43,165 bases of DNA from a virus (IMGVR_UViG_2541047954_000002:1-43165); one strand, 5' to 3'. Counted from the first letter of the stretch, positions 3,147 to 19,187 are shown. Notes: generated from the letters alone by a model not told the origin. Translations and numbers: made by a program.

Positions 3147-3470
3147 TTATTCATTGCCGATATTCACCTTTATCGCGAACACCTTTACCGGTTTATCGCC
3201 GAAGTGCGGATGTGTGATTGTCTTGATTTCATATCCGTCATACGGAACATCAATTCTACGGCTGGAATCGTCGCGCTTCGGATATCCCTTTGTGATAATC
3301 AGGCGATCATACTCCCGGAACATAATTCGCTTATTCCAGTAGTCATTACACAGGCGATACTCTTCCGTTTTCTCTCTGCGAATCATGGCATCGAAGTATT
3401 CACCTTTAACGGCAAGTTGTAGGTTAGCCAAGGTTAACCTCCTGCGGCGGTTCTGCTGCAAAATACGCAA
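3147..3470 (-). CDS. Hypothetical protein, 107 aa (start uncertain)
   Basis: Intact ORF in the early leftward operon; no confident family assignment. Confidence 0.4.
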   Translation of the reverse strand: MRILQQNRRRRLTLANLQLAVKGEYFDAMIRREKTEEYRLCNDYWNKRIMFREYDRLIITKGYPKRDDSSRRIDVPYDGYEIKTITHPHFGDKPVKVFAIKVNIGNE

Positions 3471-4275
3471 TACCTTTATCCCAGATGGATTTTATGGTCG
3501 TCCATGTGACTGGTACTTTAATTTCAATCCGCCCGCTACCGTCACAGGTATCGCAATCATCATCGCCAAAGCATTCCGGGCAGCTGATAAACGTAGTTTC
3601 TGAAAATTCACCGGATAGCGCACCCTTAGCGCCGTTCTCGGCTGTTAGTCTCTTCGGCACCATGACCCAACCATCCGGAGTTACCGGAGAGTTGCCATTT
3701 ACATCGAAGTTTGGCTCTGCGTCCTGAACCAGGAGGATGTAACCATTCTTGGCTGTATCAAGTTCTAACGCCTCGGTGACGGTGCCGAAATAGCGATTAC
3801 CTAAATCAGCATCACAAGTGCTTACATCAATGGAAACTTCCATGCCCTCGATTAATTCTGGCAAGTTGTAAGTTTGGCTTACGGGTTCGGCTTCCAGTTC
3901 TGCTATGCGCTTTTTTGCTGCTTCCAGATCAACACGCAGCTTCCCTACCGTTAGCGCAATATCCTCGTTCTCCTGGTCGCGGCGTTTGATGTATTGCTGG
4001 TTTCTTTCCCGTTCATCCAGCAGCGCCAAGACGGTAGCCGGATTGGCTGCGGCGATGAATTCAGCGTTGGCCTGCTGTTCCATTTGGAAATCTTCATCGA
4101 AACCGCTTTCTGGATGCGCTCCTTCAATTCTGCAAATAGGAATATATCCAGAAACCTCGCGATGAATTAGTGCATCATCACCATCAAATCGTCCCTCTCC
4201 ATATTCGAGCGACCATACACCACACGTTGCTTTCTCTGCCTTTTCACGCAGTGCCTGATAGTCAATCTTGCTCAC
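3424..4275 (-). CDS. Ead/Ea22-like protein with C-terminal Cys-rich zinc-ribbon; proposed GTG start with strong SD
   Basis: Contains the ANAEFIAAANPATVLALLDE-type motif and coiled-coil typical of Ea22-like proteins, C-terminal CPECFGDDDCDTCDGSG; AAGGAGG lies 6 nt upstream of the GTG at 4275; the ATG at 4467 would overlap the Lar domain by ~200 bp. Confidence 0.55.
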   Translation of the reverse strand: MSKIDYQALREKAEKATCGVWSLEYGEGRFDGDDALIHREVSGYIPICRIEGAHPESGFDEDFQMEQQANAEFIAAANPATVLALLDERERNQQYIKRRDQENEDIALTVGKLRVDLEAAKKRIAELEAEPVSQTYNLPELIEGMEVSIDVSTCDADLGNRYFGTVTEALELDTAKNGYILLVQDAEPNFDVNGNSPVTPDGWVMVPKRLTAENGAKGALSGEFSETTFISCPECFGDDDCDTCDGSGRIEIKVPVTWTTIKSIWDKGIAYFAAEPPQEVNLG

Positions 4276-5014
4276 TGTTTGCCTCCTTTGCTCGCTGATT
4301 CCACTCTGCTCTAACCTCTGAATAAAAAATCGCGCAGTCATTTCCAGGCGCTGCATATTTGCTACCAGATTGAGCGCGACACGTACCGCATCGAACGAAA
4401 TAGAATCGACCGCCAGAGCCATATTCAGGGTGATCCGCTTCGCTGGCAACGTGCGCTGCGCCGCCACAGAATGGACATGGTAGTAGGTTGCTCATGAATG
4501 CACTCCCTTGAATGCACTCCCTTGAATGCACTCCCTTGCGAAGTTGGTCTGCACAATGCAGCAGGGCGTCCGTCGCATATTTAAGCCTCACTAGCTCACC
4601 ATCATCCATTCCCGCGAGATTCGCGTGTTTAACGAACGCCGAGCAAAGGTCATTAAACGCCTGCGCCCGCACTTCATCCAGGAAAGTGTCGGTGGCTGGG
4701 GTTTCAGTAACATCATCTTCCCATTCGCTAAACTCCTCACGACAAAAGTCATTAAATTCCTTCTCAGATTGCTTAAGCGAGGTATTTTCTGCAGCCATCT
4801 TCGCGCATTTAGCCTCAAGGTTATCAATCGTGATTCCAGCAGAACGACACTCCCGCAACGCCGTTTCCAGTTTTGATTCAAGCTCACCGAACTTACGCAC
4901 CAGATATTCAGCGTTTGTTTCGTTAACCTTTAAATCTCGTGGGATGCATTTACCTTTCAGAAAACCATCCATCTCAATTAGTGACATTTGTTTCATTTCT
5001 TCCCACTCCGCCAC
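4262..5014 (-). CDS. 250-aa ORF: N-terminal unknown domain fused in-frame through a 14-bp x3 repeat to a C-terminal Lar-family restriction-alleviation domain (internal start at 4495 would give a stand-alone 77-aa Lar)
   Basis: C-terminus [42 protein letters not shown] has the CPFCG...GGRFYFV...C signature of Lar-family proteins; upstream part is acidic/coiled. Confidence 0.6.
4496..4537. repeat. Perfect tandem triplication of a 14-bp unit (GAATGCACTCCCTT; minus-strand AAGGGAGTGCATTC, contains an SD-like AGGGAG)
   Basis: Three identical adjacent copies directly 5' of the Lar-domain ATG at 4495 on the minus strand. Confidence 0.95.
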
Positions 5015-5153
5015 ATCGCATTCAGATATTTGTTTTGATTCACTGAAGGAAAAGAATTTCTCTTAAGCAATTCCTCTCTCGATGGCATTGGCTTTACGCG
5101 TTGGCGAATAATCATTTCTGCCGGAAGAATGCCGGGATTGTATGCAAGTCCTC

Positions 5154-5462
5154 TCATGATTTACTCTCCACGAACTGGTCAATAGCCATGCTAAGTGACA
5201 CACCTAAAGTCTCGATATGCTGCTGAATATCCTGTAGCGTCTGCGCCTGAGATAACAGGATTTCACGGTTGCATAACTCTTTAACCAGATGCTCAAACTT
5301 GCTGTAATAACCGATACGACTTAGTGTTTCTTTGCCTGCATTCTCGCCTTCTTTGATAATTCCTCTTTCACTAAGAATCAGGTCGTGTTTTGTTCCGGTA
5401 ATAACGTATTTGCCGAGGTCGATGTTTAGCTTCATTGTTTTCATTGTTAATTCCTCAGTCAT
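5154..5462 (-). CDS. Hypothetical protein (~100 aa; start at 5462 or 5444)
   Basis: ORF with ATGA overlap to the upstream gene stop; GAGGAA SD before the 5444 ATG; no family recognised. Confidence 0.4.
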
Positions 5463-5748
5463 TACTGATAGCGCCATAGCGTGAGCGGTAATTACGCAGG
5501 CGCGGGTCAATTTCAGGGAAGTGGGTATATGTGGCTTTGCGGAATGGTCGGATTGATGTCTGGTAAATTCGCTCGCGTTCTTCTTTCTCTGCAAGCCATA
5601 TACAGTGGCGAAATTCCTTTTCATCTTTCGTTTCCTGCGGTAGAGACATTATCTGGTCGTAGTTTTTCCTGAATTTATCCAGCACCTCCAATACGGAATT
5701 GCCGGAACAGCGGCGCGCGTCGTCCGCACCATACAGAGGCGCTGGCAT
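5455..5748 (-). CDS. Hypothetical protein, 97 aa
   Basis: Intact ORF downstream of the SSB-like gene in the same operon. Confidence 0.4.
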   Translation of the reverse strand: MPAPLYGADDARRCSGNSVLEVLDKFRKNYDQIMSLPQETKDEKEFRHCIWLAEKEERERIYQTSIRPFRKATYTHFPEIDPRLRNYRSRYGAISND

Positions 5749-6760: not shown

Positions 6761-6861
6761 ATGATTGTTCTCAGAATGGACACGGCCCAAGGAAATAACG
6801 CTGATTTAATACTTCGACTCGTGACAAATTAAGGCATACCCGCATTCCTTCGCGGTCGCCA

Positions 6862-7020
6862 TTATGGCGATACCAGAGAGCTTTCTGCGTGTACATGCGT
6901 CTCTGTAACTTGCTCTCCTTCACTGTGGTTGCAAGTGACATGAATATCTCCTTCGTTACCGATTAAATCTTTCATCTGACGAATGAATTCTTCGTCTGAC
7001 CAGTTATCTGTAAAACTCAT
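6862..7020 (-). CDS. Small ORF (52 aa) between kil and erf, possible Arf-like accessory protein
   Basis: Hand-translated ORF MSFTDNWSDEEFIRQMKDLIGNEG...; start overlaps the kil stop (ATGA); position matches arf in P22-like early regions. Confidence 0.3.
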   Translation of the reverse strand: MSFTDNWSDEEFIRQMKDLIGNEGDIHVTCNHSEGEQVTETHVHAESSLVSP

Positions 7021-12525: not shown

Positions 12526-12687
12526 ATGACAAAACGTCGTAAGAAATACCAGGAAAAAGAAGAGATTCGACACCCTGATTCACCTGAGGGATTAGTGGTA
12601 GCCGCAGCAAATAACAGGGCGTTCGCAGAGCGCCTTGTTGGTGTTTACAGACTAGCCAAAGCAGGAGTGAAACATGGGCGTCGTTAA
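12526..12687 (+). CDS. Small basic ORF, 53 aa
   Basis: Hand-found ORF with AGGAG SD 5 nt upstream; overlaps the start of the replication initiator gene. Confidence 0.35.
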   Translation: MTKRRKKYQEKEEIRHPDSPEGLVVAAANNRAFAERLVGVYRLAKAGVKHGRR

Positions 12688-13564
12688 ATTAGCTGATTAC
12701 AGGCATAACCCTGTACAACATCAGGAGGCATCCAGTATGGGGTATGTCTCTATACACCGCCAGTTTATGGACAGCAGGCTCTATAAGGACTCTCAGGCAG
12801 TACATCTTTGGCTTCACTTAATCCTCAAGGCTAATCACGAATCTACTGTCGTCAATACGGATATCGGTCCGATAACTGTTGATCGCGGTCAGATGATAAC
12901 TGGACGCCCGTCGCTGGTCAGAGAAACATTCATCCCCGACAACAAAGTTCGGAGCTTATTACGGACTTTTGAGTCGAAAGGGATGCTTAATATTTGCGCG
13001 ATGGGGAAGAAATTTAGCCTGTTTACAATCGTTAAATATGACGATTTTCAGTCAAAAAATTGTCCAACGGTTGTCCAACAGTTGTCCAACGCAAACACCA
13101 GTAATGGCGCGGCTCTCAGCGGAGATTGTCCAACGGTTGTCCAACAGTTGTCCATAAACAATAATATAAATAATATCTCTAATACTGACGTATTAGAGAG
13201 TGCCACAGCAGACAAAAAGTCTGACAAGAAAAAACCTTCCGTTAGCTGTCAGGATGTTGTCGATGCTTACCACGAAATCCTTCCTGAAGCTCCAAGAATC
13301 CGCGCACTGAATGACAAGCGTAAAAACCAGATCCGAACGTTCTGGCGCAAAGCCGGAGTGATAACCCGCCAGCTTGACGGGCATGGGTTCTCGATGCAGG
13401 ACTGGAGAAATTATTTGAGCTACGTAGGCGAAAATTGCCGATGGATGTTCGAAGAGCGCCCAAACCATCAACGCGGAACTGTCTGGCACAAAAAGGGATT
13501 TGATTTCCTGCTTAACGATAATACCTACCTGAAAGTTCGTGAGGGTGAACACGATGACCGATAA
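12674..13564 (+). CDS. Replication initiator (O-like / P22 gp18-like) with origin iterons inside the coding region
   Basis: Position between cII and the helicase; internal iterons encoding the duplicated peptide CPTVVQQLS; ATGA coupling to the helicase gene. Confidence 0.7.
   Translation: MGVVKLADYRHNPVQHQEASSMGYVSIHRQFMDSRLYKDSQAVHLWLHLILKANHESTVVNTDIGPITVDRGQMITGRPSLVRETFIPDNKVRSLLRTFESKGMLNICAMGKKFSLFTIVKYDDFQSKNCPTVVQQLSNANTSNGAALSGDCPTVVQQLSINNNINNISNTDVLESATADKKSDKKKPSVSCQDVVDAYHEILPEAPRIRALNDKRKNQIRTFWRKAGVITRQLDGHGFSMQDWRNYLSYVGENCRWMFEERPNHQRGTVWHKKGFDFLLNDNTYLKVREGEHDDR
13055..13165. repeat. Replication origin iterons: ~6 copies of TTGTCCAAC in two groups, followed by an AT-rich tract
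   Basis: TGTCCAACGGTTGTCCAACAGTTGTCCAACG and GATTGTCCAACGGTTGTCCAACAGTTGTCCATAAACAATAATATAAATAATATC, read directly. Confidence 0.75.
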
Positions 13565-19031: not shown

Positions 19032-19106
19032 GGGTCAGTCGTATAAAGGTCATTACGGAAGGCTGTTAACCTTCTTATCGTGGTTCGAGCCCACGCTGTC
19101 CCGCCA
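19032..19106 (+). tRNA. tRNA gene, anticodon GUU by hand folding (tRNA-Asn-like), encoded CCA
   Basis: Hand-folded cloverleaf: acceptor GGGTCAG/CTGTCCC (one mismatch), anticodon stem GAAGG/CCTTC with loop CTGTTAA, T-arm CGTGG-TTCGAGC-CCACG, 3' GCCA. Confidence 0.5.
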
Positions 19107-19111
19107 AACAT

Positions 19112-19187
19112 GCTGGTTTAGCTCCAATGGTAGAGCAGTCGCCTTGTAAGCGAATGGGTAGCGGTTCAAGTCCGTTAACCAGCACCA
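19112..19187 (+). tRNA. tRNA gene, anticodon UGU by hand folding (tRNA-Thr-like), encoded CCA
   Basis: Perfect 7-bp acceptor GCTGGTT/AACCAGC, D-arm GCTC..GAGC, anticodon loop CTTGTAA, T-arm AGCGG-TTCAAGT-CCGTT, 3' ACCA. Confidence 0.65.

Follow-up and report, generated by a model that had tools for sequence, protein, structure and literature searches.

In the contingency loci of surface and restriction-modification genes of Haemophilus, Neisseria and Campylobacter, the number of perfect repeats sets the frame of what lies downstream, and such loci typically consist of long arrays of short units. An ATGA motif, in which the stop codon of one gene overlaps the start codon of the next, is an arrangement typical of translationally coupled genes and is found in gene pairs of lambdoid early operons. 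The Lar/RalR protein of the Rac prophage has been described as a DNase toxin (RalR) under the control of the small RNA RalA (PMC4041452), restriction alleviation by Rac Lar having been reported earlier (King & Murray, 1995, as cited in PMC4041452). Here, we describe a junction between two genes in a viral stretch of 43,165 nucleotides (IMGVR_UViG_2541047954_000002:1-43165, referred to as the window), within the accessory part of the early-left region of a lambdoid prophage that lies beside ybhC in E. coli. At this junction, a gene of the family of HK620 hkaH, ST104 orf9 and phrog_614 (the hkaH-like or upstream gene) runs across three tandem copies of a 14-bp unit into the gene of a Lar-like protein (lar).

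The array resembles the contingency loci in its perfect repeats, whose number sets the downstream frame, but differs from them in having a 14-bp unit present three times, two known states, an apparently single and stable origin, no sign of reversibility, and a place in a repressed prophage operon. In comparison with the ATGA-coupled pairs of lambdoid early operons, the junction between the DUF2737 gene and the hkaH-like gene of the window is still of the ATGA type, whereas at the following junction the overlap has been lost by an additional 28 bp and the upstream open reading frame (ORF) runs through lar. With HK620 hkaH, ST104 orf9 and phrog_614, the upstream part shares the conserved N-terminus, a C-terminus of the type ...QLRKGxxx that bears a Shine–Dalgarno sequence (SD), and the place after DUF2737; it differs from them in that its C-terminus is extended by a 9-aa linker and then by a complete Lar domain. 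The Lar-like protein, in turn, shares with Rac Lar/RalR the small size, the N-terminal CPFCG...C..C zinc-ribbon motif, a match to PF14354 above threshold, and a position close to recombination genes and int/xis in the early-left part of a lambdoid prophage, and differs in its length of 77 aa against 64 aa. The array is probably the result of a lineage-specific tandem expansion of a 14-bp junction from one to three copies (+28 bp), which arose once, has been stably inherited and looks like a common slippage mutation rather than a switch.

The three perfect copies of the 14-bp unit AAGGGAGTGCATTC lie on the minus strand directly 5′ of the lar ATG (Table 1), as stated in the original prediction, which had been made from the sequence alone. 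Along the minus strand, cgcAAGGGAGTGCATTC is read three times and is followed by ATGAGC, and the order around the array is CAACTTCGC, AAGGGAGTGCATTC, AAGGGAGTGCATTC, AAGGGAGTGCATTC and ATGAGCAAC. Tandem Repeats Finder (TRF) reports an array at 4495..4538 with a period of 14, 3.1 copies, 100% matches and no indels, slightly wider than the three units because a CA dinucleotide borders both array ends. With up to two mismatches allowed, the unit has three matches in the 43-kb window against 0.45 expected, a number reached in 0 of 100 shuffles, and no match besides the array. Each unit also contains the predicted AGGGAG, of which only the proximal GGGAG (4507..4503) is at a working distance from lar, 7 nt from its ATG at 4495; this proximal unit, with SD, spacer and start codon, is unaltered.

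All relatives examined outside this lineage have a single copy at this junction, which reads GGGAGTGCATTCATGA; the SD is contained in the 3′ end of the upstream gene, whose stop codon overlaps the start codon of lar. In the phages HK106, ST104 and Salfasec13b, the module is the same and has a single unit (CTTCGCAAGGGAGTGCATTCATGA). The one-copy upstream gene ends CGC AAG GGA GTG CAT TCA TGA (K-G-V-H-S-stop) with the TGA overlapping the lar ATG, and the ancestral single unit supplies both the final five codons of that gene, K G V H S, and the SD and spacer of lar. The Prokaryotic Genome Annotation Pipeline (PGAP) annotates this arrangement as two genes with a 4-nt overlap, and the ATGA is present in every one-copy relative, while in the window the TGA is out of the upstream frame. 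One copy was found in 12 of 12 phage records carrying the junction, in 17 of 17 complete E. coli genomes with the whole junction (match spanning 73 of 101 query bases) and in all nine distinct contexts (L004–L012) drawn from 24 of the contigs encoding a protein identical to P0001. This stand-alone protein (158 aa, MKQMSL..., no repeat) occurs on 66 contigs and is 100% identical to the upstream part of the window's ORF. Compared with the window from 5158 to 2, five of the one-copy loci (L004, L005, L006, L008 and L009) show 14–15 mismatches each, and their sole gap is the 28-bp indel.

To relate copy number to frame, we rebuilt the locus in silico with zero to seven copies. One, four and seven copies leave two separate genes, the upstream product (158, 172 and 186 aa) ending in the ATGA overlap; two and five copies give upstream products of 185 and 199 aa with a 27-codon out-of-frame tail and a stop 71 nt into lar; and zero, three and six copies give products of 230, 244 and 258 aa that are fused to Lar. 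This bears out the earlier claim that the frames separate at one, two or four copies. It does not bear out the reason given for the fusion, namely that 3 × 14 = 42 bp is divisible by three: this was rejected, as the ancestral junction is already offset by one base. The fusion arises because the additional 28 bp, congruent to 1 modulo 3, cancel the one-base offset of the ATGA.

The in-frame fusion itself stands, but not the predicted length of 250 aa, which had been derived from a 173-codon upstream ORF. The ORF at 4262..5014 (minus strand) has 250 open codons counted from the GTG at 5014. The ATG at 4996 is the likelier start of the upstream gene, giving a fusion of 244 aa rather than 250 aa, because it overlaps the stop codon of DUF2737 as ATGA and because all 158-aa homologues are started there. 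An exact look-up of the 250-aa GTG-start product among recorded proteins retrieved none, and the 244-aa product is recorded exactly as EQZ80385.1, HAL1532126.1 and MBA7786213.1. It is made up of 158 upstream codons, a 9-codon linker and Lar. An AlphaFold model of the fusion has a mean predicted local distance difference test score (pLDDT) of 51.2 and a predicted template modelling score (pTM) of 0.32, with residues 88–171, junction included, below 50; at this low confidence the model suggests only a helical N-terminal part, an unstructured junction and a small beta-plus-helix Lar domain.

Besides the window, the exact 244-aa product is encoded on eight public contigs from NCBI and Logan assemblies of different projects. 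Carriers are GCA_000461555.1 (E. coli UMEA 3687-1, EQZ80385.1), GCA_014103085.1 and GCA_014079885.1 as well as the Logan assemblies of SRR786357, SRR8871910, SRR13991753 and ERR4556461, and all carriers have exactly three perfect copies. Identity to the window is 100% over 14,996 bp for the UMEA 3687-1 contig (L017, KE702497.1) and over 13,088 bp for the ERR4556461 contig, which indicates that the window stems from UMEA 3687-1 or a sister strain. The carriers nevertheless fall into three prophage mosaics, the first formed by the window, L017 and L021, the second by L018 and L019, which differ in the immunity and replication region, and the third by L020 and L016, which have Rad52/SSB in place of Erf. 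All three-copy carriers are integrated at one attachment site on the ybhC side. Their host flank is invariant, with no differences over 7,157 bp when L017, L018 and L020 are compared, and none in 2,927 bp between three-copy carriers and one-copy strains. The three-copy loci share a block of 10 single nucleotide polymorphisms (SNPs) at 5035–5056 and the variant 2337A, both absent from one-copy loci, and differ among themselves at 4679, 2792 and 2070. The most economical interpretation of these sequences is a single origin of the three-copy allele in one host and prophage lineage followed by stable descent at three copies, because there is one haplotype and one host flank, yet three mosaics and private SNPs. 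The DUF2737 allele was also considered as a marker for one-copy loci on the three-copy haplotype and was dropped; the window's allele occurs in over 11,000 blocks with a wide variety of genes downstream of it, and marks only a mosaic boundary.

Only two allelic states are present in the public data, one copy being the norm and three copies being found on the eight contigs and in the window. Exact look-ups of the products of zero, two, four, five and six copies in a collection of about 15 billion proteins retrieved none, whereas the same collection holds the free 77-aa Lar on 479 contigs and the one-copy upstream product on the 66 contigs mentioned above. The repeat-junction signature is present in one of 154 fetched homologues, the 244-aa protein. 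An exact 28-mer search for arrays of at least two copies gave no matches in genome, viral and metagenome contig collections, a result of little weight as the one-copy junction itself was found there one, three and zero times, respectively. Similarly, a homology search with the predicted 46-aa tail of the two-copy allele yielded no candidates but is uninformative, since known one-copy proteins sharing 19 of these residues were also missed. The original prediction had set an invariant repeat count, together with a single protein species, against any regulatory meaning; the count varies across homologues, where one and three copies both exist, but is invariant within each allele class.

The expansion probably proceeded by replication slippage, which would have acted first on the CA dinucleotides flanking the unit and next on the duplicated units themselves, so that two copies were gained. 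The upstream frame now enters the lar frame to give the 244-aa protein of hkaH-like part, 9-aa linker and Lar. The allele is best regarded as neutral or nearly neutral, in a block of genes kept repressed in the lysogen. Of the two explanations offered in the original prediction, the recent triplication is thus favoured by the one-copy relatives and the shared three-copy haplotype. Several points weigh against this account of a neutral expansion. No two-copy intermediate has been seen; this is a little unexpected if slippage proceeded stepwise, and might reflect selection against two copies or for the in-frame state. Persistence through three mosaic variants would also be expected of a mildly advantageous fusion. 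Finally, the one-copy relatives with an identical upstream protein were sampled from 24 of the recorded contigs, and copy-number states were taken from assemblies and protein records rather than from reads, so that rare variants within a culture could escape.

The fusion, or an altered dosage of Lar, may have an effect on fitness, for which the absent two-copy intermediate is the only positive hint. If the chimera or the changed dosage were of benefit to phage or lysogen, selection would have favoured the in-frame state over a disruptive two-copy state, which would fit both the missing intermediate and the occurrence of the three-copy allele in three mosaics and at least eight assemblies. At two copies, ribosomes arriving from upstream would cross the lar start out of frame for 71 nt and the predicted fold sequesters the SD, and because of these two effects an escape from two to three copies is plausible. 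In addition, Lar domains occur within larger proteins, as in the phrog_599 profile. We nonetheless regard selection for the fusion as unlikely. The allele is rare, with eight contigs against the 479 that carry the same Lar as a free gene, and is confined to one host lineage; the Lar homologues (54–127 aa) include no other hkaH–Lar fusion; the gene following the hkaH family varies freely, which gives no hint that the family and Lar are functional partners; and no structured interface is evident in the AlphaFold model.

A phase-variation switch, as the original prediction had envisaged in its other explanation, would require reversible slipped-strand changes in copy number that toggle between coupled genes (one or four copies), a lar-silencing overlap (two or five) and a fusion (three or six). 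The perfect repeats are located exactly at the gene junction, copy number does set the frame relation with a period of three, and the core GAGUGCAUUC of the unit is self-complementary in RNA. In predicted folds, adjacent units pair as a 10-bp hairpin with an AAGG loop, and in the minimum-free-energy folds this GAGUGCAUUC hairpin buries the lar SD at two and four copies, whereas at one and three the proximal SD stays accessible. The folding energies are overall no better than those of shuffled controls, however (z-scores of +0.4 to +2.0 for one to three copies). Whereas the array does alter frame with copy number, as contingency loci do, the many independently recurring copy-number alleles expected among relatives of such a locus were not found: only one and three copies are known, the products of zero, two, four, five and six copies are unrecorded, and no array of at least two copies appeared in the other collections scanned. 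The three-copy loci represent one haplotype in one host lineage and have kept three copies amid SNPs and module exchange, three 14-bp units are far from the typical contingency array, and genes in a repressed early-left prophage operon would rarely expose switching to selection. The switch is thus unsupported by the two allelic states, the single origin of the expanded state and its stability across diverged carriers, and we consider it very unlikely. Similarly unlikely is a low-rate switch sensitive to parity, in which even copy numbers would hide the lar ribosome-binding site in the hairpin and break the register, while odd numbers would expose it, one copy giving coupled genes and three the fusion; if it were true, slippage would set the dosage and form of Lar in prophage sub-lineages. 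That the additional copies are an artefact of sequencing or assembly and absent from the real genome is hardly conceivable, given the same 42-bp array in eight contigs from independent NCBI and Logan assemblies and in three prophage mosaics, and given that a 44-bp array without a repeated 31-mer should be resolved unambiguously by k-mer assemblers.

Residues 176–242 of the 250-aa ORF match the Pfam family PF14354 (Lar_restr_allev) with an E-value of 9.4e-9 and 35.8 bits against a cut-off of 28.6, covering profile positions 2–58 of 58. The phrog_599 profile ("Lar-like restriction alleviation protein"; 262 positions, Lar domain at 72–133) matches with an E-value of 8e-13, and PGAP uses the name "Lar family restriction alleviation protein" for the identical 77-aa sequence. 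The NCBIfam model TIGR03655 (anti_R_Lar) remained below its cut-off of 39.6 bits for both the 77-aa protein (29.4 bits) and the fusion (26.4 bits). A four-cysteine zinc ribbon (CPFC at residues 7–10 and CGTC at 36–39 of the 77-aa protein) is conserved in homologues. BLASTP against RalR of the K-12 Rac prophage gave a weak match (26% identity over 42 aa, 23.1 bits, pairwise E-value 7e-5) in which the CPFC motif is aligned. "Anti-restriction", as the original prediction had called the domain, is for this protein a label borrowed from its family, and an Rfam search at a permissive threshold over 3300..5300 detected no RalA-like or other RNA.

Summed over the lar alleles L001, L002 and L025, nine of 15 substitutions are synonymous in the lar frame and none of those nine is synonymous in the overlapping Ea22 frame, a pattern that favours the lar frame and by which lar is a real, separately conserved coding gene. 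Because lar keeps its own SD and ATG, free 77-aa Lar is probably still made by internal initiation in the three-copy allele, next to the fusion, whereas termination–reinitiation coupling of lar to the upstream gene would be lost. The start of lar also appears to be involved in other rearrangements. A 56-aa ORF at 6771–6941 (minus strand), upstream of erf, ends ...LGPCPF-stop, and its DNA TGTCCATTCTG matches the lar start CCATGTCCATTCTGTGG. The Logan protein P0143 (122 aa) is exactly this 56-aa ORF joined to Lar at CPFCGG, and at three other loci (L012, L033 and L035, listed with P0143) lar is broken directly after MSNLLPCPF. To judge from these sequences, this short motif at the lar start appears to be a recurrent recombination joint.

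Table 1. Coordinates of the repeat array, the fused reading frame and the adjoining genes in the window.
Feature	Position	Strand	Basis or remark
DUF2737 gene, 54 aa	4993..5157	-	TGA overlaps the hkaH-like ATG (ATGA 4996..4993); domain match
Six extra codons if GTG 5014 is the start	4997..5014	-	Probably untranslated as part of the upstream gene
Fused ORF, 244 aa, ATG 4996 to stop 4264..4262	4262..4996	-	Exact product on record
hkaH-like / phrog_614 part, fusion residues 1-158	4523..4996	-	100% identical to stand-alone 158-aa P0001
14-bp x3 array	4496..4537	-	TRF, unit scan, single copy in all relatives examined
Repeat-encoded linker RECIQGSAF, fusion residues 159-167	4496..4522	-	Only in the three-copy allele
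Lar-like gene, 77 aa	4262..4495	-	PF14354, phrog_599; CPFC...CGTC zinc-ribbon motif
Ead/Ea22-like gene, 283 aa	3424..4275	-	PF13935, E-value 3.9e-33; GTG 4275

The upstream part of the fusion is a full-length match to phrog_614 (E-value 5.2e-59, residues 1–157), and the protein belongs to the family of phrog_614, HK620 hkaH and ST104 orf9; it is predicted to be mostly helical. An NCBIfam search of this protein gave no match, and the PGAP name "YfdS family" borne by some relatives was not confirmed by it. The hkaH family always follows DUF2737, but the next gene varies freely among phages. Nearly all of the hkaH-family proteins P0001–P0120 end in ...(Q/E)L(R/H)KGxxx, while their middles are mosaic and their lengths range from 122 to 224 aa. 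The conserved codons CGC AAG GGA G double as the SD of whichever gene comes next, and the repeat unit resembles a portable junction because the C-terminal ...QLRKG... of the hkaH family encodes the SD of the next gene.

Downstream of lar, the Ea22-like gene starts at the predicted GTG with a perfect AAGGAGG, which we located at 4288..4282 with a 6-nt spacer, and the gene overlaps the end of lar by 14 nt. PGAP and other gene callers place the Ea22 start at the same position in relatives. The Ea22 frame remains open upstream of this GTG, across the whole of lar as far as the TGA within the ATGA overlap (3424..4467, 347 codons), and because it stays open a long Ea22 is annotated in place of Lar in HK106 (gp32) and in the 332-aa call of L009. 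We considered the long frame as a real gene in place of lar and rejected it on the substitution patterns.

The prophage adjoins ybhC (pectinesterase-family) and carries a 356-aa lambda-type integrase (1–1300 in the window, 13713–20735 in L017). The identical host flank and the differing immunity, replication and recombination modules point to repeated module exchange at one occupied attachment site in one host lineage. Adjacent to the DUF2737 gene, a 156-aa ORF at 5154–5624 (minus strand) has a weak DUF5405 match and overlaps the gene of Abc2 (anti-RecBCD; 5455–5748, minus strand); this long form is probably an artefact of ORF listing, as gene callers start internally (93–96 aa in L013 and L017). 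Further along, two adjacent sets of 11-bp tandem repeats at 13060–13154 (TTGTCCAACGG, 2.9 copies, and TTGTCCAACAG, 2.6 copies) lie inside a 296-aa gene (about 12674–13564 according to the L017 gene table) upstream of a DnaB-like helicase gene and look like origin iterons in a lambda-O-like initiator gene. Two adjacent tRNA genes are found within the prophage at 19032–19184 on the plus strand (Rfam RF00005, 53 and 61.5 bits).

For biology at large the junction carries little weight, as another case of slippage yielding a chimeric ORF. For the families concerned, it means that the GenBank entries of a 244-aa "Lar family" protein (e.g. EQZ80385.1) do not represent a new domain architecture, but two ordinarily separate genes fused by mutation. 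It also bears on annotation: the upstream gene is better started at ATG 4996 than at GTG 5014, and lar is coding, whereas the extension of the open Ea22 frame across it is not. Lastly, the one-copy and three-copy loci constitute a natural allele pair, otherwise about 99.7% identical over 5 kb, and if the fusion changed Lar activity this pair could be used to probe both translational coupling and the N-terminal extension of a Lar-like protein.

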